This document shows positions 1 to 24,376 of a DNA stretch of 64,000 nt, one piece after another; position 1 is the stretch's first letter, and every line of letters starts with the position of its first letter. Below the pieces are notes generated by a model. That model did not search any database. It had not been told where the DNA came from and worked only from the letters and a program-made list of their open reading frames with translations. Source of the stretch: Ignavibacteriota bacterium (GTDB taxonomy: Bacteria > Bacteroidota > Ignavibacteria > UBA10030 > UBA6906); contig PMJQ01000099.1 in NCBI GenBank assembly GCA_003157485.1, positions 5,660 through 69,659 on the forward strand, written 5' to 3'. Both the position numbers and the translations under genes were made by a program.

Positions 1-1376
1 GCGTACAGGGCGAACAGAACCGGCAGCTGCAGGAGCATGGGAAGGCAGCCCGCCGCGGGATTGACGCCGTACTCCTTGTACAGGTTCATGATCTGCTGAT
101 TCTGTTTGTTCGGGTCGTCCTTGTACTTCTCACGGATCTCGCTCATCAGCGGCGTGAGCTTCTGCATCCGCTTCATCGACTTCATGCTCGTGCGCGTCAG
201 CGGCTGCAGCGCGAGCTTGATGATTATCGAAAACACGATAATCACCCACCCGTAATTCGGTATGAACTTATGAAGAAACTGAAACAGCGGGATCATGATA
301 TATTCTGATATCGGCCTGATGATCCAGGCGGACCCCAGGCTCATGATCTGTTCGAGACCGCGCCCGTACCCCTTCACGATATCGAAATCAAGCGGTCCCA
401 GATAGACCGTCACCTTTGCGTGTTCCGCGCCGGTCATGAGCGGCATTTTCAGGGCAAGGGCGAAATTCTTTTTTACGCCATTGTCCGCGACGGTGGCCCG
501 CGATCCTTCAATGTATGCTCCCTGGCTCGTGCCGTGCTCGGGCATCAGCGCGAGAGCAAAATACTTGTTTCTCGTCGCAACCCAGTCCATGAGACCGTTG
601 ATATCGCGCTTCGTCGTTTCCCCGTTCTTCCCCGCGTCAACCTCCGTCAGCTCGCCTCCGGAGTACGCGTACGCCAGTGCGAAGTTTGACTCGTCCACGC
701 TGTTGTGTTCCGCATACCGTAATCCGTTCTCCCAGACGATCTGGTACTCAAAATTCGATATTGCATCTCCCATACCCGTGAATTCGAAATCGGTCTCGAA
801 CGCATACTTCCCGTTTGTGAACGTCATCCGCTTTGTCAGCTTCTTCCCGCCTGCAAGCGGAAGCGTGAGCTCGACAATTACGCTCTGATCCCCCGAAAGC
901 CGGTATGTCGTCCATGATTTTTCGCGTGCGTCAAAATAGAGATTCTTCGTGTTGATGAGTTTCCCATCCCCCGAGGTGAACAGGAGGCTGAGGTCACCCC
1001 CCCTGTCGAAATCCACGAGCTGGACGGGATAACCGTCCCACGTCTTGAATGCCGAAAGCTCCCATTTCCGTATGAGCCCCCCCTTTGTCGTGATCTCCGC
1101 GGTATAGAGATCCGTCGAAATGACGATGACCTTTTCTTCGCCCCTGGCGCGGACGGAGAAGTAGGATCCAAGAAGATCGTCCGGAGTGTGCGCGGTGGTG
1201 TCGTGAGTCGCTGCGGGACGTTCCACTCTGAGAGTATCCTTCAGAACCGGCATCGATGCGTGGAGACTGTCCGCCGAGACGGGACGCGCATGCGGCGGGG
1301 GAGGAGCCTGCACCCACATCCAGATGATGAGGACCAGTCCGATGAGGACGAATCCGATCGTAGTTTGCTTATCCAT
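1..1376 (-). CDS. yidC: Membrane protein insertase YidC, N-terminal ~458 aa; 3' end runs past the window start
   Basis: Hand translation of the reverse strand from the ATG at 1376 gives MDKQTTIGFVLIGLVLIIWMW... and ends with the YidC hallmarks NYGWVIIVFSIIIK and CLPMLLQLPVLFALY. It sits immediately downstream of yidD, rnpA and rpmH. The ORF track omits it because it is truncated at the window edge. Confidence 0.88.
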   Translation of the reverse strand, partial: MDKQTTIGFVLIGLVLIIWMWVQAPPPPHARPVSADSLHASMPVLKDTLRVERPAATHDTTAHTPDDLLGSYFSVRARGEEKVIVISTDLYTAEITTKGGLIRKWELSAFKTWDGYPVQLVDFDRGGDLSLLFTSGDGKLINTKNLYFDAREKSWTTYRLSGDQSVIVELTLPLAGGKKLTKRMTFTNGKYAFETDFEFTGMGDAISNFEYQIVWENGLRYAEHNSVDESNFALAYAYSGGELTEVDAGKNGETTKRDINGLMDWVATRNKYFALALMPEHGTSQGAYIEGSRATVADNGVKKNFALALKMPLMTGAEHAKVTVYLGPLDFDIVKGYGRGLEQIMSLGSAWIIRPISEYIMIPLFQFLHKFIPNYGWVIIVFSIIIKLALQPLTRTSMKSMKRMQKLTPLMSEIREKYKDDPNKQNQQIMNLYKEYGVNPAAGCLPMLLQLPVLFALY

Positions 1377-1408
1377 ATCGCATCAATTTACGTGGGAATA
1401 AAAGTCTC

Positions 1409-1618
1409 TCAGGCGGGATCGAACCCGCCGGGATGAAACGGATGACAGCGGCCGATGCGCTTCAGCGCGCGCCAGAGCCCGCGCCCCGCCCCGTATTTGG
1501 AAACCGCGTCCATTGCATACTGGGAACATGAAGGGGAGAATCTGCACGTGTTCGGGGGGAGAAGCGGGGAAACAAGCACCTGGTACGCCCGGAGGACAAG
1601 AAGCACGCCATGTTTCAT
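1409..1618 (-). CDS. yidD: Membrane protein insertion efficiency factor YidD
   Basis: 69 aa with a YidD-like sequence ([37 protein letters not shown]). It lies in the conserved position between rnpA and yidC. Confidence 0.9.
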
Positions 1619-2004
1619 GCGCGCCCTCTCACGGCCGCCGCGCAGACTTTTCTGCAGAGTGAATTCATGTCCATGCTGACGCGGTCGAATCTGAATGGTG
1701 CCTGCCGTGTGCCCTTTCCCCCGTTGTAGATGAAAAGCACGTTGAGGGAATCTCCGGCAGTCTCAGCAGCACCCGCCAGCATGTCCCTCTCCCTGTCATA
1801 GGCTGCGCGCATGAGTCTCTTTGCCCTGTTTCTTCTCACGGCATTGTATCTCCTGGCAGAGACGGAAAAGCCGGCACGCACCCGCGTCCCGGCTCCTGTT
1901 TCCCACCGGAAGAAACACCGCACCACTTCGCCATCGACTTTCCTCCCTGACCTGTACAACACCTGGAAGGAATCCCGACCCCGAAGCGTTTCCGCCTTCC
2001 TCAC
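1615..2004 (-). CDS. rnpA: Ribonuclease P protein component
   Basis: 129-aa basic protein directly downstream of rpmH, and its end overlaps yidD by 4 nt. Size, charge and position are typical of RnpA. Confidence 0.85.
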
Positions 2005-2151
2005 CTACCGTTCGTCGCTTACAGTAAGTTTCTTCCTGCCGCGAGCCCGCCGCCGGGCGAGCACTTTTCGCCCGGTTTTCGTTGCCATGCGGGCGCGGAA
2101 TCCGTGCGTGTTCTTACGCTTCCTGTTGTGTGGCTGAAAAGTGATGCTCAT
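2005..2151 (-). CDS. rpmH: 50S ribosomal protein L34
   Basis: Not in the ORF track because it is under 60 aa. Hand translation from the ATG (complement of 2149-2151) gives [48 protein letters not shown], a clear L34 signature. Its stop abuts the rnpA start. Confidence 0.85.
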
Positions 2152-2290
2152 CCCGAACTCCCGCACTTTGTGTCAGAATCCCAGCAATCACCGGACATTC
2201 GTACAGCCGGATATATCACGTGAAGGGATACAAGGTATAAAAATTATGCCATAGACACAAGGAAACCCCAGGGAAAAAGAAATATTGATC

Positions 2291-2319
2291 TTGCGTCGGC
2301 TTCCCCATTGTAGTATAAT
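2291..2319 (+). promoter_or_regulatory. Sigma70-like promoter candidate (TTGCGT-17 nt-TATAAT) facing dnaA
   Basis: The -35-like hexamer at 2291-2296 and a perfect -10 TATAAT at 2314-2319 are separated by a 17-nt spacer. The element lies ~290 nt upstream of the dnaA ATG, with the DnaA-box cluster between it and the gene. Confidence 0.4.
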
Positions 2320-2427
2320 CTGAGAGTGAAGCGTTGCGATCCCCGGGTGCACAATTTGTTAACAAGTCCCAGTTCGGTTTAAGCCCCACCGTGTCAACTG
2401 CTCTCTGGTTTCCGATCTGATTCCGGA

Positions 2428-2583
2428 TGTTGATAATCGACAAAACCACCAGCAAATGACCCGATTTTAGGATGGTTTTGTTTTCCACAAAGCTGTTGAT
2501 AAGTTATTGATACTTTTCTTCCCGCGTGTCACCGTGTGCACTGTTGATAGTTTTGTTGATAACCTCGCCCGCGGTGTGCATAA
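2428..2583 (+). promoter_or_regulatory. Cluster of DnaA-box-like 9-mers upstream of dnaA
   Basis: Exact TGTTGATAA appears three times (2428-2436, 2494-2502, 2554-2562). Also present are TGTTGATAG (2542-2550), TTTTCCACA (2481-2489, the reverse orientation of the box) and TGTGCATAA (2575-2583). All are within one mismatch or so of the canonical TGTGGATAA/TTATCCACA. Confidence 0.55.
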
Positions 2584-2606
2584 CCCTCTAATCTATTGGA
2601 CGACAA

Positions 2607-4079
2607 ATGGATTCCAGTCCCCAGCTCATTATCAACCCGTCCGACGAGGATCAGGCGCGCGCTGTCTGGAACGCGTGCCTGGACCATATCAGGGAGAGTG
2701 TAAACACACAGAGTTTCAAGACGTGGTTCGAGCCCATGATCCCGATTCACCTGCGGGGGGGCAAACTGACCGTTCAGGTGCCAAGTCAATTCTTCTATGA
2801 CTGGCTCGAAGAGCATTACTATACGGTCATCAGCCAGACGATCGAGACGGTTCTCGGAAAGGATGCGCATCTTGAATATTCCGTTCGGACGGATGAGCCT
2901 CAGATAGACCTGGATTATCAGATTACCCCGCCGCCTGTACAGCGGCCCGAGAGGAGGACATTTCCGCCTCAGCCGACATCATTCACCGTTCCTCCGCCTC
3001 CACCATTCGTCGCAGGGAGAAGCGAGGGGACGCCCGGATCCTTTCAGACGTTCCTTAATTCCCGCTATACATTCGAAAATTTCATCAAGGGGGACAGCAA
3101 CCAGCTGGCGCGCGCGGCGGCTTCCGCCGTAGCCAATAACCCCGGAGGCACGTCGTTCAACCCTCTCGTTATCTACGGGACCACGGGCCTGGGGAAGACC
3201 CACCTCATCCAGGCAATCGGGAACCATGCCATAGCTCACGGAAAGGCAAAACGGGTTATCTACGTTTCAAGCGAGAGATTTACCGTCGAGTTCGTCGAAG
3301 CGATACAGCGTGATACGACAAACGAATTTGCCGGATTTTACAGGAGCATGGACATCCTGATCGTCGACGATATACAGTTTTTCGCGGGGAAGGAACGAAC
3401 CCAGGATCATTTTTTCCATACGTTCAACGAATTACACCAGCTCGGAAAGCAGATCGTCCTCTCGTCGGACAGGCCGCCGAAAGAGCTGAAGGGGCTGGAT
3501 GACCGGCTCCTCTCAAGGTTTCAGTGGGGACTGACGTCGGATATCCAGCCTCCGGATCTCGAGACCCGCATTGCGATCCTCCTCAAGAAGAGTGAGAATG
3601 AGCGTATCAATCTTCCCCAGGACGTCGTTGAATGCATCGCATCCAACGTAACGTCAAACATACGGGAACTGGAAGGCTGTCTGATCAGCCTCATGGCAAA
3701 GGCTTCCCTGGAAGGAAGGGAGATTACCGTCGATCTGGCGCGGGAAGTGCTCAAGGTTGTTGTTGGAGACGTCAAATCGCCGTTGACGATCGAGACCATC
3801 CAGCGCACCGTGTGCGATTATTTCAGCATTCCCGAGGATCTCATCCGGGCAAAAACGCGAAAACAGGAAATCGTGAACGCCCGTCAGGTAGCGATGTACC
3901 TGGCAAAAGAACTCACAAACTGCTCTCTGAAAACGATCGGCCTTCACTTCGGCGGGAGGGACCATAGCACGGTGATTCACGCATATCAGTCGGTCGAAGA
4001 TCAGATGCGCATCGACCAGAAATATCAGGCAAACGTTCAGCAAATCAGACGGCGCCTCCAGATGCTGGGACATGTATAA
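2607..4079 (+). CDS. dnaA: Chromosomal replication initiator DnaA
   Basis: 490 aa with an AAA+ Walker A (GTTGLGKTHL), a sensor region and a C-terminal DnaA-box-binding domain (IVNARQVAMYLAKELTNCSLKTIGLHFGGRDHSTVIHA). A proline-rich linker follows the N-terminal domain. Confidence 0.97.
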   Translation: MDSSPQLIINPSDEDQARAVWNACLDHIRESVNTQSFKTWFEPMIPIHLRGGKLTVQVPSQFFYDWLEEHYYTVISQTIETVLGKDAHLEYSVRTDEPQIDLDYQITPPPVQRPERRTFPPQPTSFTVPPPPPFVAGRSEGTPGSFQTFLNSRYTFENFIKGDSNQLARAAASAVANNPGGTSFNPLVIYGTTGLGKTHLIQAIGNHAIAHGKAKRVIYVSSERFTVEFVEAIQRDTTNEFAGFYRSMDILIVDDIQFFAGKERTQDHFFHTFNELHQLGKQIVLSSDRPPKELKGLDDRLLSRFQWGLTSDIQPPDLETRIAILLKKSENERINLPQDVVECIASNVTSNIRELEGCLISLMAKASLEGREITVDLAREVLKVVVGDVKSPLTIETIQRTVCDYFSIPEDLIRAKTRKQEIVNARQVAMYLAKELTNCSLKTIGLHFGGRDHSTVIHAYQSVEDQMRIDQKYQANVQQIRRRLQMLGHV

Positions 4080-4467
4080 TTTCGATCAGTGTGTTTAATT
4101 ATGTTCACAACATTGTGAGGAGTGTGTGATCTGTCGTGTAACGACTGTGCATACTTCATTCCTTGTTCTGTTACTTGCTCTTCACACCAATCTTTGTGCA
4201 TGGAACATTCCTCTGTGCACACGCTGACATTTCAAGTTCTTTCTCACCTTACTCTGCATACCTGAGCAGCACTCACCGCTTCTTTTGACCGTCTGACACT
4301 TCTCCACATATAAACACAGCTTATAATAAGTATTACTCTTATATATAGACACGTAAGAAGAGATACCACGGTTTCATGGAAGGTTGTTTTTCCATGGCTT
4401 TTTGCATAAATTATAAGGGTTTTTCTTCTCATGTAAATGTTCATCTAGTCCACCTCAGGAGAATGCA
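4080..4467. promoter_or_regulatory. AT-rich dnaA-dnaN intergenic region; candidate DNA unwinding element / oriC segment
   Basis: This 388-bp spacer has visibly lower GC than the ~60% flanks. It contains runs such as ACATATAAACACAGCTTATAATAAGTATTACTCTTATATATAGACACG (about 4300-4350). A single DnaA-box-like TTCTCCACA sits at about 4299-4307. The dnaN RBS (AGGAGA) is at its 3' end. Confidence 0.45.
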
Positions 4468-5580
4468 ATGAAATTCACCGCCAACAGCATTGAACTCCAG
4501 CGCACGCTAAATAAGGTCGGTGGTGTAGTTCCCTCAAAATCCACCATGCCTATTCTCGAAAATATTTTGTGTGAATTGTTGGGAAATATGCTGACACTGA
4601 CGGCGACGGATCTCGCAATTTCGTTGACGGTATCTCTTCAGGTTCGCGGTTCGGAAGACGGCAGAATTGCCATTCCCGCGAAACGACTTATGGATACGAT
4701 GAAATCGCTCCCTGATACAAGCACGACGTTTTCCATCGATACCGGGGCAAATAAAATCAAAATTACGACGGAAAACGGAGAGTACGGACTGACGGGAGAA
4801 ACGGCAAAGGACTTTCCGCCCGTTCCGCCGTTTAAGGGTACATCAGAGTTTTCCATAGACAGTAACATTCTGCGCGGCCTTATTCACAGGACCACATTTG
4901 CCGTAAGCACAGATGAACTGAGACCTGCCATGATGGGGGTATTATTTCAGGCAAAGGATACGGACCTGCGCGCGGTATCGACGGACGGACACAGGCTGGT
5001 AAGGCTGACCTACAGGCAGCAAAAGCCGCTTACGATGAAAAAGGACATTGTTATTCCGGCCAAGGCACTTCTCATCCTCGGCAAGTCCATAGACGAAGGA
5101 GATACGGCAATAAGCGTCAGCGATACGCATGTGAAGTTTACGTTCGGTCCGTCGTTCCTTGTCTCCCGCCTCATCGACGAAACGTACCCGACGTATGAAG
5201 CGGTGATCCCCGCGGAGAACGACAAGCAGATGACTGTCAAACGGGACGACATGATTTCCTCTATTCGGCGTGTTGCGCTCTACGCCAGCGCGACAACGCA
5301 TCAGATTCGGTTTGACATTGTGAAATCCGCGCTCCAGATAACCGCCCAAGACCTCGATTTCGGCGGCGAGGCCAAGGAGACAATTCCGTGCACATTTACG
5401 TCGGATGCGCTCGAGATAGGATTCAATTCCGCATATCTGATCGACATCCTTTCGCACCTTGAAAGCGAACAAGTGACGTTCCGCTTCAGCACGCCGACGC
5501 GGGCCGGCATTGTTGCGCCAGTGGGAAGTGACAGCGACACCGTGCTCATGCTAGTAATGCCGGTGCGGTTGAATACATAA
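4468..5580 (+). CDS. dnaN: DNA polymerase III beta sliding clamp
   Basis: 370 aa starting MKFTANSIELQRTLNKV..., with an AGGAGA RBS upstream. It occupies the canonical position after dnaA. Confidence 0.95.
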   Translation: MKFTANSIELQRTLNKVGGVVPSKSTMPILENILCELLGNMLTLTATDLAISLTVSLQVRGSEDGRIAIPAKRLMDTMKSLPDTSTTFSIDTGANKIKITTENGEYGLTGETAKDFPPVPPFKGTSEFSIDSNILRGLIHRTTFAVSTDELRPAMMGVLFQAKDTDLRAVSTDGHRLVRLTYRQQKPLTMKKDIVIPAKALLILGKSIDEGDTAISVSDTHVKFTFGPSFLVSRLIDETYPTYEAVIPAENDKQMTVKRDDMISSIRRVALYASATTHQIRFDIVKSALQITAQDLDFGGEAKETIPCTFTSDALEIGFNSAYLIDILSHLESEQVTFRFSTPTRAGIVAPVGSDSDTVLMLVMPVRLNT

Positions 5581-6758
5581 GGGGTGTTGCCACATGCTTC
5601 CCCGACGCGGTCCCGCCTCCGGCGGGACCGCTGTATTGACGGGCACGCCACAGACCATGATCCTTTCCAGAATCAGACTCGGCAACTTCCGGAACCATGC
5701 TGCAACGGCCATCGAGTTGGGTGGGGGTATTAACGCCTTTCTCGGCGACAACGGTCAGGGAAAGACAAACATACTGGAAGCGGTCTCGTATCTCAGTCTT
5801 ACGAAGAGTTTCTATGCATCCGGCGACTCCGAAGCGATTGAGATCGGTACCGGGGGATTTGACGTTGAAGGGGTCCTTGTCTCTGACGCGGGGGTGCAGC
5901 ACCAGGTCAGCGTGACATGCGCGCGGCTGCCGCAGGCGAAACGGTTTCTCATCAACGGCTCGCCGCCGGAACGGCTTGCCGCAGTCATCGGACGGTTCCC
6001 CGTTGTCGTCCTTTCCCCGGAAAAAGGTCCCATAACGTTTGGCGGCCCGGGCGAGCGAAGAAAATTCATGGACCTTGCCCTCTCGCAAGTAAGCGGCGCG
6101 TATCTTGAGGAAATCCTCGAATACCGGAAAGCGCTCAGGCAACGGAACAGGATACTCACCAACAACCGCGCAAAGGGCTTTCTGCCGCCCGGAGTGATCG
6201 AGCCGTGGACGGAAAGCCTGGTGGCCTACGGGAGCAGAGTTGCGCACCGCCGTGCGATGTTTGTCACCGACCTACGCAGCCACATCGTAAGCGCATACCG
6301 TACGATAATGCCGGAGGCGGAGACTCCGGACATCGCCTACGTTTGCGGGTTCGCAGCGGGGGAAGGCGCTGACGCCCGGGCATATGCGGCGTCTTTGTCC
6401 GCGGATCTTGAAACGAGGAGTACCGAGGAGCGCCGGCGCGGCCTGACCCTTGCGGGTCCTCACCGGGACGATCTGCTTCTGACGATCAACGGAATGAACG
6501 TACAGCGGTTTGCCTCGCATGGGCAGCACAAGACACTCCTTGTGGCTATGAAGATTGCGGAATATTCCTATATGCAGGAGAGGCACAATGAAACACCGAT
6601 GCTCCTCCTGGACGATGTGTTCAGCGAGCTCGACAAGGGGCGCGTCCACCGTATCCTCTCCTTCGCCGCAGGGCTCGGGCAGGTGATGATCACGGCGACA
6701 GAGGGAACAGTGTTCGGCTCCTCGATCGCGTGGGGAAGACAGAACAGGAGATTTATCG

Positions 6759-9174
<2,416 letters not shown>

Positions 9175-21680: not shown

Positions 21681-23333
21681 TCATTCTCCCTGTTTCGCAG
21701 GGAGTGCGGGGCGGGCAAAGAGCACTTTCTCCCGCTCGATCGTGACTGTTCCGGCGGGCGCTCCCCGGGGCTTCCGGACGAAACGCTTCTCAGTCATGGC
21801 CACCGCGACGGTTCCCGAGTTTTTCAGCTTGCTGTAAAACGCCGCGATGGCGGCAGCCTGTTCGCACGCCTTCTTTCCCGGTTCTCCTTTTCCCGAATGC
21901 ACCTTCAGCACCACATGAGAACCGCTTCCCCCGCGCGCGTGGAACCACAGATCGTCGGGCTTCGCATACCGGAGAGTGAGAAGATCGTTGTTTGCGCCGT
22001 TCTTTCCGGCCCAGACTTCGAAGCCCCCGTCCACAGTGAAGACCCTGAACGGCAGCCGTTCTTTTTCCCGGCTTCTGGCCCCGAGCCCGACGCTTTCCAA
22101 CTCTTCCGCATGTTCGCTCACAAACTTCTCTCCCCGGTCTCCCGGTGCCAGATCCTCCGCCCCGGCGAGAAGTTTCTCAAGGCGCTCGATCCGGGCGGAA
22201 ATCTCAATCATTCTGCGGACCGATTCTTCACCGGCGGACTTTGAGCGCTTGGCCTTTTCGAAATAGCGCTGGGCATTCTGAACGGGCGAAAGGGCGGGCT
22301 CGAGAGGTATGGAGACGGGTTCCCCTTCGATCGTGCCGTCGAATGCTCTCGATCCCCTTTGCAGGTCCGGGAGCGCCGCCATCAGGGCGTTACCGAACTG
22401 CTCATAGGTCCCGGCCCTCTCAGCTTCGTGCGCATCCGTTTGAATCGCCCTAAGCGCCCGCTTTTCTTTTTCGATACGCAGCCGGAGCGGTGTAAGGAGA
22501 GACTCCCTCTCTCCATCGAGAAACGATTTGGATGCCCTCCGGGCAAGGAAGAACCTGATGCCCCTGTTGATGTCGGGGAACAGTTCTTCCTTCATGCCGC
22601 CGGCAAGCGTGAGGGGGATAAGCGAAAAAAACGCCGGGACGTCCTCACCCGAAATGTACACTCTTGGAAGCGGCCTTTCAAGGTCTGTCTGGACAGAACG
22701 AATCCCGCGTTCGAGCGCCGCAAGTGCCCCGGAATCAATCCCACCGGTCTTAAGAGACGCATCCACCCCGGCGCGCGTGACGGATTCGAGTGCGAGTGTA
22801 CCGCCCATGGCCGGGAAAGTCCTTTTGATGGCGGAGATAACAGTCCGCGTTTCTGGTGAAGCGCAGGCGGCGCGGAACGCCTGAATGTCCCCGGTGGGAA
22901 CCTCGGGTGCGAAATGAAATGAAGTGCCTGCGAGTTTTTTCGGGTTCTTGAACGAATCGACGATCTTTCCCGAATCCCCCAGGAGGAGCACATTGGACCT
23001 CGGTCCATAGAGAACAGCTGCGAGCGTCGTTCCGTTGTCGAGGCTGATTTCCACCACACGGTCGGATGGGCGCAGAATCACGGTGTTCACATGCGTATCC
23101 ACGATGTCGCCGAGGAGGTCAACGGAATTCCGGCGGGCCCTGGTTCTCCCCTCGTGGATGTAGACTGAGCTGACATCCGGCCTGCAGAGGAAGACGAGCT
23201 CCCCCGGATGATCATGAAAAGCTATTGCAAGCTCGTCCGCGTGCTGCGAATAGGCCCCACGGATCCGTTTTCCCAGAATACTGGAATTGAACGTGGAAAC
23301 GAGGAAGAGAAAAGTGTAGTAATTGCTGATCAC
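21681..23333 (-). CDS. NFACT-family RNA-binding protein (FbpA/RqcH-like, ribosome quality control)
   Basis: 550 aa with N-terminal NFACT-N-like sequence and a central coiled-coil. The C-terminal DUF814/NFACT-R region is recognisable (WFHARGGSGSHVVLKV...). Confidence 0.78.
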   Translation of the reverse strand: MISNYYTFLFLVSTFNSSILGKRIRGAYSQHADELAIAFHDHPGELVFLCRPDVSSVYIHEGRTRARRNSVDLLGDIVDTHVNTVILRPSDRVVEISLDNGTTLAAVLYGPRSNVLLLGDSGKIVDSFKNPKKLAGTSFHFAPEVPTGDIQAFRAACASPETRTVISAIKRTFPAMGGTLALESVTRAGVDASLKTGGIDSGALAALERGIRSVQTDLERPLPRVYISGEDVPAFFSLIPLTLAGGMKEELFPDINRGIRFFLARRASKSFLDGERESLLTPLRLRIEKEKRALRAIQTDAHEAERAGTYEQFGNALMAALPDLQRGSRAFDGTIEGEPVSIPLEPALSPVQNAQRYFEKAKRSKSAGEESVRRMIEISARIERLEKLLAGAEDLAPGDRGEKFVSEHAEELESVGLGARSREKERLPFRVFTVDGGFEVWAGKNGANNDLLTLRYAKPDDLWFHARGGSGSHVVLKVHSGKGEPGKKACEQAAAIAAFYSKLKNSGTVAVAMTEKRFVRKPRGAPAGTVTIEREKVLFARPALPAKQGE

Positions 23334-23390
23334 AGTTTTATCAACAATATATTGAAAAATGGCGATTTTCCCAACAGATTCGCGGATCTA

Positions 23391-23399
23391 TGTGGATAA
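23391..23399 (+). promoter_or_regulatory. Isolated perfect consensus DnaA box TGTGGATAA
   Basis: Exact 9-mer located in the divergent intergenic region between the RqcH-like gene and yicC. Confidence 0.3.
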
Positions 23400-23497
23400 C
23401 TTGTGAATGGCGGTGAAAAATGTGTCTGCAAGTTTCCATTGCGACTACTGCGGGTTTTTAGTATTATACCTTGCTTAGGCACAAGCCATGAGGATGA

Positions 23498-24376
23498 ATG
23501 ATCGCCAGCATGACCGGGTTTGGTAGGGGGGAATCGACGGGAGAAGGCGTAACGGTCACCGTTGAGCTCCGGACGGTGAACAACAGATTTCTGGAGGTCA
23601 CGACGCGCCTGCCGCGATCGCTCAGCCTCCGAGAAAATGACGTCAAAGAGTTGATACGGCGGAAGATATCACGCGGCAAAGTGAACGTGATTGTCAATGT
23701 CGAGCGGGAAGGAATCGGGTCTGCCGGGCTGGAAATCAATACAGCCGCGGCAAAAGCATATTATTCGCTTCTCGTCCAGCTGAGAAAGACGCTTCGGCTG
23801 AAGGAAGCCGTGAAGCTGCAGCATATGCTGCAGTTCTCTGAGATATTCGAACAGAAAGAGTCCGGCGGGACCGACGAGAAGGAGTGGGCGGTCCTTCAGG
23901 AATCGCTGGAGACCGCCCTCGGGGCGCTGGCGGAGATGCGTCGGGCTGAGGGAGGAGAACTTGATAGGGATTTCCGGGCCCGGATTGCGTTTCTTGACGA
24001 GAAGCTGGGGCAGATCGAACGGCTCTCGGCGGAACAGGTCCCCGTTGAACGCGTTCGGCTTCGTGAACGGGTGACTCAGCTCGTCGAGAAAACCCCCGTC
24101 GATGAAGGCCGGCTTGAAATGGAACTGGCGCTGCTGGCGGACAGGCTCGATGTGACGGAAGAGTGCGTCCGTTTCAGGAGCCACAACAAGTTCTTTCTGG
24201 AAGCCCTAGCCCTTCCCGAGCCCGCAGGAAGAAAACTCAATTTTCTCATCCAGGAGATGAACCGGGAGGCGAACACGATCGGCTCGAAATCCAATGCTAC
24301 GGAGATCGCGCACATCGTTGTGAACATGAAAGAGGAACTGGAGAAGATCAGGGAACAGCTGCAAAACATCGAATAA
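23498..24376 (+). CDS. yicC: YicC-family protein (YicC_N + DUF1732)
   Basis: Begins MIASMTGFGRGE, the canonical YicC start. It is 292 aa and followed by gmk as in many bacteria. Confidence 0.85.
   Translation: MIASMTGFGRGESTGEGVTVTVELRTVNNRFLEVTTRLPRSLSLRENDVKELIRRKISRGKVNVIVNVEREGIGSAGLEINTAAAKAYYSLLVQLRKTLRLKEAVKLQHMLQFSEIFEQKESGGTDEKEWAVLQESLETALGALAEMRRAEGGELDRDFRARIAFLDEKLGQIERLSAEQVPVERVRLRERVTQLVEKTPVDEGRLEMELALLADRLDVTEECVRFRSHNKFFLEALALPEPAGRKLNFLIQEMNREANTIGSKSNATEIAHIVVNMKEELEKIREQLQNIE

Follow-up and report, generated by a model that had tools for sequence, protein, structure and literature searches.

Two-part bacterial origins of replication, in which unwinding takes place in the spacer between dnaA and dnaN, have been described (PMC7561715), and tandem DnaA boxes combined with DnaA-trios constitute a widespread bacterial unwinding module (PMC8287927). 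The rule given for this basal unwinding system is that the tandem boxes are followed, within 16 bp, by at least three DnaA-trios (PMC8287927), which in Clostridioides difficile read CTACTACTATTACTACTA (PMC7561715). In Thermoanaerobacter tengcongensis the DnaA boxes are summarised as TTATCNACA, and a probe used in an electrophoretic mobility shift assay carries TGTTGATAA 3 bp from TGTGGATAA (PMC1888806, Pei et al., 2007); a TTATCAACA box has been predicted in Cyanothece (PMC4674748). The only Ignavibacteria origin that we found in the literature is a prediction for Melioribacter roseus, placed in the dnaA-dnaN spacer (PMC3534657), which agrees with the layout of the locus described here. We have analysed a 64-kb stretch of DNA (the window) that carries the rnpA-rpmH / dnaA-dnaN-recF-dciA-gyrB locus of an uncultured member of the Ignavibacteria (Bacteroidota), and in particular an array of repeats of the TGTTGATAA family in the spacer between rpmH and dnaA. 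From its sequence and that of related loci, we consider it probable that this array is both an autoregulatory operator of dnaA and the oriC1-like half of a two-part origin of the Bacillus type.

Results

A DnaA-box-like array upstream of dnaA

The sites between positions 2357 and 2583 of the window, eight or nine in number, are very likely DnaA boxes, judging from their spelling and conservation (Table 1). A preliminary description of this DNA had listed six of them, all of which were confirmed at their positions, and to these we add TGTTAACAA at 2357 and TATTGATAC at 2505. The same description had placed all six about one mismatch from the canonical box; this holds for the five sites within 2428-2583 that lie at most one mismatch from TGTGGATAA, but not for TGTTGATAG, which is two mismatches away. 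A repeat finder recovered the same family of nine-base sequences as the exact-match search. A near-box on the minus strand, GGTTGATAA at 2629-2637, located 22 nt into the coding sequence of dnaA, also matches the box weight matrix, which was derived from the related loci introduced below.

The density of the repeat is beyond chance, as had been proposed. TGTTGATAA occurs in four exact copies in the 64 kb against 0.11 expected from dinucleotide shuffles, and three of the four lie inside 135 bp. The surroundings had been called GC-rich, which is true of the window (~59% GC) but not of the rpmH-dnaA spacer itself (46% GC); at the composition of the spacer 0.005 copies are expected, three or more copies arose in none of 200,000 shuffles, and any nine-base sequence whatever reached three copies in 3 of 3,000 spacer shuffles. 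The densest box cluster of the window is 2351-2650, with nine matrix sites compared with at most four in shuffles. A chance repeat is therefore ruled out by the whole-window and the local-composition shuffles alike.

In all, 80 related dnaA loci were retrieved, and their rpmH-dnaA and dnaA-dnaN spacers were delimited by tblastn. The upstream set consists of 72 rpmH-dnaA spacers (the window and 71 related loci), and the upstream spacer of the window was aligned with those of nine relatives whose DnaA proteins are 84-98% identical. Box sites and their statistics, conservation, G/T interchange, orientation, phasing and duplex stability were computed from this material.

In the ten-locus alignment the boxes form conserved islands amid diverged spacer. 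The box at 2357 lies in a conserved block, GTGCACAAnTTGTTGACAAG, and has the consensus TGTTGACAA in relatives, a spelling present in 30 copies in 27 of the 72 rpmH-dnaA spacers, while the box at 2428 reads TGTTGATAA, TGTTGACAA or TGTGGACAA. The box at 2481 is the sole strong upstream box that faces the opposite way and retains an invariant CCACA, and at 2494 TGTTGATA is invariant across all ten aligned loci. Orthologues of the box at 2554 alternate between TGTTGATAA and TGTGGATAA among relatives that span the same 84-98% range of DnaA identity. At 2575 the orthologues read TGTGCATAA, TGTGAATAA or TGTGGATAA, a variation confined to position 5, which implies that this position is free, as in the classical TTATNCACA.

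Box spelling across the lineage

Position 4 distinguishes TGTGGATAA (G; G4 boxes) from TGTTGATAA (T; T4 boxes), with TGTAGATAA and TGTCGATAA as the A/C forms. The commonest nine-base sequence in the 72 upstream spacers is TGTTGATAA (77 copies in 47 spacers), followed by TGTGGATAA (62 copies) and TGTGGAAAA (58 copies). Against the remaining 637 kb of the 80 related loci as background, TGTTGATAA is enriched 41-fold, and TGTGGATAA and TGTGGAAAA are enriched 63-fold and 83-fold, respectively. Sites of the form TGTNGAWAA in Ignavibacteria-like loci carry T at position 4 in 105 cases, G in 87, C in 3 and A in 2, whereas the eight Kryptoniota-like loci have G in 51, T in 8 and A in 1; the contrast gives a Fisher p of 1e-8, which is indicative only, given the dependence among the loci.

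Both T4 and G4 boxes occur in each positional slot of the array, some slots leaning towards T (-200, -180 and -110) and others towards G (-50 and -30), and the T4 boxes share flanks and orientation with the canonical boxes. The spelling with T at position 4, which is A at position 6 on the other strand (T4/A6), is also found in boxes that adjoin the unwinding element of many relatives, for example ATCAACATATCAACA. Together, the position-4 counts and the switching between G and T at orthologous boxes define the box of this lineage as TGTKGAWAA. On these comparisons the T4 spelling is an ordinary form of the lineage box, exchangeable for the G4 form, and no separate element, and T is co-preferred with G at position 4, A and C being almost absent. 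The earlier proposal that the preferred box of this organism has T at position 4 is thus borne out in so far as the T4 sequence is the commonest, but G is equally allowed and T is not uniquely preferred; likewise, the variant is typical of the lineage but not specific to it, having already been published for T. tengcongensis. Sites of the Spo0A-like type TGTCGAA were also considered and rejected, as C occupies position 4 in just 3 of 197 cases.

The base-specific contacts of Escherichia coli DnaA are made by six residues, R399, P423, D433, H434, T435 and H439 (PMC2533591). The DnaA of the window, whose domain IV is encoded at 3759-4076, aligns to the structures of E. coli and Bacillus subtilis DnaA; it keeps R399, D433, H434 and H439 but carries K in place of P423 and S in place of T435. 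K423 and S435 are also present in the proteins of the sister Kryptoniota-like group (loci L063, L067, L074 and L076-L080), along with H439Y and LPLK for SSLK. Since these loci are dominated by G4, P423K and T435S alone cannot explain the use of T4, and a single-residue cause was rejected on the same grounds. S435 is common in epsilon- and delta-proteobacterial DnaA, whose contacts with G4 and T5 differ from those of E. coli, and in both E. coli and Mycobacterium tuberculosis the guanine that stays exposed to dimethyl sulphate upon DnaA binding is G4 (PMC5043019). This exposure would fit a less tightly read position 4, which we take as a lead and not a result. We raise only tentatively the idea that Ignavibacterial DnaA has evolved a two-base specificity, binding TGTGGATAA and TGTTGATAA equally and rejecting A and C, with the change traced to P423K and T435S, substitutions with respect to both E. 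coli and B. subtilis. If this were true, the Ignavibacterial and Kryptoniota-like proteins would form a natural close pair for mapping how base pair 4 is read.

Predicted promoter and architecture of the leader

The candidate promoter TTGCGT-17-TATAAT reported in the preliminary description is present at 2291-2319 and conserved in relatives, although it falls below the threshold of a consensus scan: its -35 element matches the consensus at three of six positions, and for this reason the scan did not list it. We retained it because of its conservation. In the ten-locus alignment CTTGCG and TTGTnnTATAAT vary little or not at all, and most Ignavibacteria-like loci have TTGC-17-TAnAAT ~315-340 nt ahead of the dnaA start. 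In Kryptoniota-like loci a box lies within the promoter spacer (TTGTTTTTCCACA...TATAAT), and most of the boxes upstream of dnaA have the minus orientation. A further block that is invariant in the alignment, GGTATAAAAATTATGCCA at 2233-2252, reads TGGCATAAT on the minus strand, where it resembles an extended -10 element, and is probably the rpmH promoter, divergent from that of dnaA.

All boxes lie 38-290 nt past the predicted promoter, inside the dnaA leader. In the upstream spacers 143 boxes are in the plus and 12 in the minus orientation, and box-to-box spacings peak at 11-12 bp (the commonest), 21, ~50, 64-66 and 74-75 bp, which are multiples of the helical turn. The corresponding distances in the window are 11 bp from 2494 to 2505, 12 bp from 2542 to 2554 and 21 bp from 2554 to 2575. 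Co-orientation together with spacing in multiples of ~11 bp would place the boxes on one face of the helix, which favours cooperative filling of the array.

The leader also contains an A/U-rich hairpin at 2440-2485 (CAAAACCA...TGGTTTTG, then TTTTGTTTT), which overlaps the box at 2481. It folds in the window and in the closest relatives with different stems, including a perfect 10-bp stem in one of them (L002), and is not consistently formed in relatives whose DnaA is 84-89% identical; it may act as a terminator or attenuator, or have no role. An Rfam search of positions 1-8000 returned no family at E <= 1, and on this basis a structured RNA in the leader or the downstream spacer was rejected.

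The dnaA-dnaN spacer

The least stable 30-mer of the 64 kb is 4320-4349, at -27.4 kcal/mol compared with a mean of -44.0 (standard deviation 3.4), and in the related loci (60 of 60) it is likewise the dnaA-dnaN spacer that holds the minimum-stability 30-mer of the ~9.4-kb locus. An unwinding element in the upstream spacer was rejected, as the best 30-mers there (2227-2256 and 2493-2522) reach only about -33 kcal/mol and the minimum lies upstream in none of the related loci. Immediately before the AT-rich element are two tandem boxes that overlap by one base and are conserved as TTATCMACATATNCACA in relatives, in which a recurring module consists of TTATCMACATATNCACA, 2-5 G/C-rich bases and a TTATTACTACTCTTA-like sequence. 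Box orientation in the dnaA-dnaN spacers is 50 minus against 14 plus.

The element can be read as the trio-like triplets TTA TAA TAA GTA TTA CTC TTA TAT ATA; published DnaA-trios, when read on the top strand, take the forms TTA, CTA and CTC. Past the tandem boxes, NTN-triplet runs average 4.8 units in relatives against 3.0 in shuffled sequence, and 50% against 15% of them reach at least five units; many relatives read TTA TTA CTA CTC TTA past the tandem boxes. In the window CTT ATA ATA starts 3 nt and GTA TTA CTC TTA 13 nt past the boxes, under a rule that is permissive in AT-rich DNA. Because the triplet run of the window itself is short, we grade the trio feature as compatible rather than demonstrated. 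We regard 4300-4349 as the probable site of origin unwinding.

The spacer further contains weak, box-like sites at 4090-4261, which may be low-affinity DnaA sites or sites of another factor, their assignment to DnaA being tentative. Close relatives keep TGTGCATGG, TGTGCACA and GTG columns at ~10-bp intervals in this spacer. The window and its relatives thus have box clusters in both spacers that flank dnaA, strong upstream and composed of tandem and weak sites downstream.

Table 1. Predicted elements and genes of the dnaA locus, in window coordinates.
Feature	Position	Strand	Sequence or remark	Basis
yidC		-		Open reading frame list
yidD	1409-1618	-		
rnpA	1615-2004	-		
rpmH	2005-2151	-		
Probable dnaA promoter	2291-2319	+	-35 TTGCGT (2291-2296), 17-nt spacer, -10 TATAAT (2314-2319)	Predicted
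Candidate DnaA box	2357-2365	+	TGTTAACAA; palindromic core; ~40 nt past the -10	Weight-matrix match on both strands
Candidate DnaA box	2428-2436	+	TGTTGATAA; T4 variant	Exact match and matrix match
Candidate DnaA box	2481-2489	-	TGTGGAAAA (= TTTTCCACA on the plus strand)	One-mismatch search and matrix match
Candidate DnaA box	2494-2502	+	TGTTGATAA; T4 variant	Exact match and matrix match
Candidate weak box	2505-2513	+	TATTGATAC; 11 bp after the 2494 box	Invariant core; TATTGATA conserved in the alignment
Candidate DnaA box	2542-2550	+	TGTTGATAG	Matrix match; orthologous positions are TGTTGATAA or TGTGGATAA in relatives
Candidate DnaA box	2554-2562	+	TGTTGATAA; 12 bp after the 2542 box	Exact match and matrix match
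Candidate DnaA box	2575-2583	+	TGTGCATAA; 24 nt before the dnaA ATG	One-mismatch search and matrix match
dnaA	2607-4079	+	490 aa	Open reading frame list; homologues with PF11638, PF00308 and PF08299, named chromosomal replication initiator protein
Weak box-like sites	4090-4261	mostly +	TGTGTTTAA (4090), TGTTCACAA (4102), TGTGCATAC (4146), TGTGCATGG (4195), TGTGCACAC (4214), TCTGCATAC (4253)	
Candidate tandem DnaA boxes	4300-4316	-	TTCTCCACA (4300-4308) and ATATAAACA (4308-4316), as read on the plus strand	Matrix
CAGC spacer, then AT-rich probable unwinding element	4317-4349	+	TTATAATAAGTATTACTCTTATATATAG	Stability profile
dnaN	4468-5580	+		
dciA (PF05258)	6759-7091	+	between recF and gyrB	

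Gene context and a secondary cluster

The genes yidC, yidD, rnpA and rpmH are transcribed divergently from dnaA, dnaN, recF, dciA and gyrB. The DnaA protein of the window is identical or nearly identical to proteins of metagenome-assembled genomes labelled Ignavibacteriota or Bacteroidota. The cumulative G-C curve has its minimum at ~4.5-5.7 kb and rises steadily beyond, which fits an origin at the dnaA locus. The presence of the dciA gene suggests a helicase operator of the DciA type rather than a DnaC/DnaI loader, and, with DciA encoded beside recF, helicase loading would probably be unlike the DnaD/DnaB/DnaI route of B. subtilis.

The second-best box cluster of the window lies at 23338-23410, with TTATCAACA at 23338 and tandem TGTGGATAAcTTGTGAATGG at 23391 and 23402, 11 bp apart. 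The cluster is flanked by an NFACT/RqcH-like gene (21681-23333, minus strand) and the divergently transcribed yicC (23498-24376, plus strand), and the spacer between them also holds the 30-mer of second-lowest stability. This spacer may act as a secondary locus of DnaA binding or as a divergent promoter under the control of DnaA.

Discussion

A model for the array

From the computed features we infer binding, repression, looping and unwinding as follows. The C-terminal helix-turn-helix domain of DnaA would most likely bind both TGTGGAWAA and TGTTGAWAA, and the phased, co-oriented boxes would let DnaA load cooperatively, and on one side, along the transcribed leader. Bound past the sigma-70-type promoter at 2291-2319, DnaA would repress the transcription of dnaA. 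The leader array would also pair, as one part of a two-part origin, with the oppositely oriented boxes at 4300-4316, 1.7 kb away, and with DnaA on both halves the intervening dnaA gene would be looped out, as reported for B. subtilis, Helicobacter pylori and C. difficile (PMC7561715), and the duplex would open at 4321-4349. Autoregulation of dnaA by the array has, in our judgement, a good chance of being correct, and we lean slightly towards a contribution to origin function as well. Both roles had been put forward in the preliminary description, and both appear plausible on the present evidence: the former as every box lies past a conserved promoter in the dnaA leader, the latter as unstable DNA and tandem boxes are found in the dnaA-dnaN spacer.

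Alternative explanations

The array might instead be an operator only, which merely represses dnaA while a complete origin in the dnaA-dnaN spacer works independently of the upstream boxes. All boxes lie past the conserved promoter, the dnaA-dnaN spacer contains the probable unwinding element as well as the tandem boxes and trio-like repeats, and in several bacteria boxes at the dnaA promoter stand outside the origin. The origin of M. roseus, moreover, was assigned to the dnaA-dnaN spacer alone (PMC3534657). However, eight or nine phased and co-oriented boxes far exceed what simple repression needs and outnumber the strong boxes downstream, the arrays in the two spacers have opposite orientations, as in origin halves, and unwinding in the downstream spacer of C. 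difficile needed both spacers (PMC7561715), so that we consider a purely regulatory array rather unlikely. Several points nevertheless weigh against a combined operator and origin half. The box array of the leader would be sufficient for autoregulation on its own, and the dependence of the downstream half on it is something that we infer; the promoter is predicted, and its -35 element is weak; and the GC-skew turn is poorly resolved, as the window has just 2.6 kb to the left of dnaA. In the window, the triplet run beginning no more than 10 nt from the tandem boxes comprises 3 units only, judged by a trio criterion that AT-rich DNA satisfies easily. Finally, the related loci are phylogenetically dependent, so that the counts, spacing peaks and Fisher test overstate their independence.

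A different question is whether the T4 boxes are deliberately weaker than TGTGGATAA, to be filled cooperatively or by ATP-DnaA only, with the mixture of G and T setting the threshold and order of filling. This explanation overlaps with a dual operator and origin half, and we hold it to be unlikely. In E. coli any deviation from TTATNCACA reduces affinity (PMC5043019), T4 boxes are often 11-12 bp from another box, and the slots of the array do differ in their leaning towards T or G. Yet the enrichment of T4 boxes is comparable to that of canonical ones (41- against 63-fold) and theirs is the commonest single nine-base sequence, T and G are exchanged at the same orthologous box among close relatives, and the near absence of A and C argues for positive recognition over a simple loss of affinity; in the DnaA of the window, moreover, two of the six residues that contact bases in the E. 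coli protein are changed (P423K and T435S). That the repeats are bound by another regulator, or are a functionless chance or mutational repeat, is highly improbable. The site does depart from the textbook box at a position where E. coli DnaA discriminates, but chance is excluded by the shuffles, the T4 form interchanges with the canonical one at orthologous positions with the same flanks and orientation, and it is present in the tandem boxes beside the unwinding element. The C4 that a Spo0A-type TGTCGAA requires is rare (3 of 197), and the Rfam search of positions 1-8000 gave no family. The reading that we prefer remains that of an array which serves as both dnaA operator and upstream origin half.

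Implications

For the largely uncultured Ignavibacteria, these results provide a comparative description of the origin region, namely the box TGTKGAWAA, a phased leader array and a tandem-box/trio-like AT-rich module. This should help origin prediction in metagenome-assembled genomes, as programs that seek only TTATCCACA count these boxes as mismatches, and also coverage-based estimates of growth rate and the selection of fragments when replication is assayed in the two cultured relatives, Ignavibacterium album and M. roseus. Both the two-part origin of the Bacillus type and the basal unwinding module would thereby be extended to a DciA-using lineage of the Bacteroidota, with no new mechanism.

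Comparison with known systems

The closest described arrangement is that of B. subtilis (incA/incB upstream and incC downstream), C. difficile and H. pylori (oriC1/oriC2), which share the rnpA-rpmH / dnaA-dnaN context with the window. These origins likewise have box clusters in both spacers flanking dnaA, an upstream cluster that overlaps the dnaA promoter region, and an AT-rich unwinding element, tandem boxes and CTA/TTA-type trios in the dnaA-dnaN spacer (PMC7561715, PMC8287927). The window differs from this type in belonging to another phylum (Bacteroidota, Ignavibacteria), in having dciA beside recF, in allowing T at position 4 and in the one-base overlap of the two boxes next to its unwinding element, and it is known from sequence alone.

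In T. tengcongensis the same position of the box is relaxed (position 6 of TTATCCACA corresponds to position 4 of TGTGGATAA), the box pair of the probe resembles that at 2542 and 2554, and, as in the window, the boxes form a cluster ahead of dnaA; this cluster overlaps the dnaA promoter. However, T. tengcongensis belongs to the Firmicutes and has one origin region, upstream, with 12 boxes, and its consensus has N where the window lineage is restricted to C or A (on the other strand, G or T), a narrower choice. The TTATNCACA box of E. coli is also an asymmetric 9-bp site for domain IV of DnaA with a free position 5; in contrast to the window lineage, its consensus bars A at position 6, and its oriC is one continuous region that lies well away from dnaA. 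In E. coli, dnaA is autoregulated through boxes at its promoter.

Shifts of box preference at the level of a phylum or class are likewise known from the cyanobacterial TTTTCCACA and the epsilonproteobacterial boxes with an obligatory T5, and these accompany substitutions in domain IV at 423, 435, 438 and 439 (PMC5043019; PMC4674748). The cyanobacterial spelling TTTTCCACA is also used in the window, at 2481. The shift in the window lineage concerns another position, and it adds a second base instead of replacing the first. What is specific here is the Ignavibacteria taxon, the restriction of position 4 to G or T and the DciA-encoding genome, whereas the T4/A6 spelling and two-part origins were already known from the systems above.

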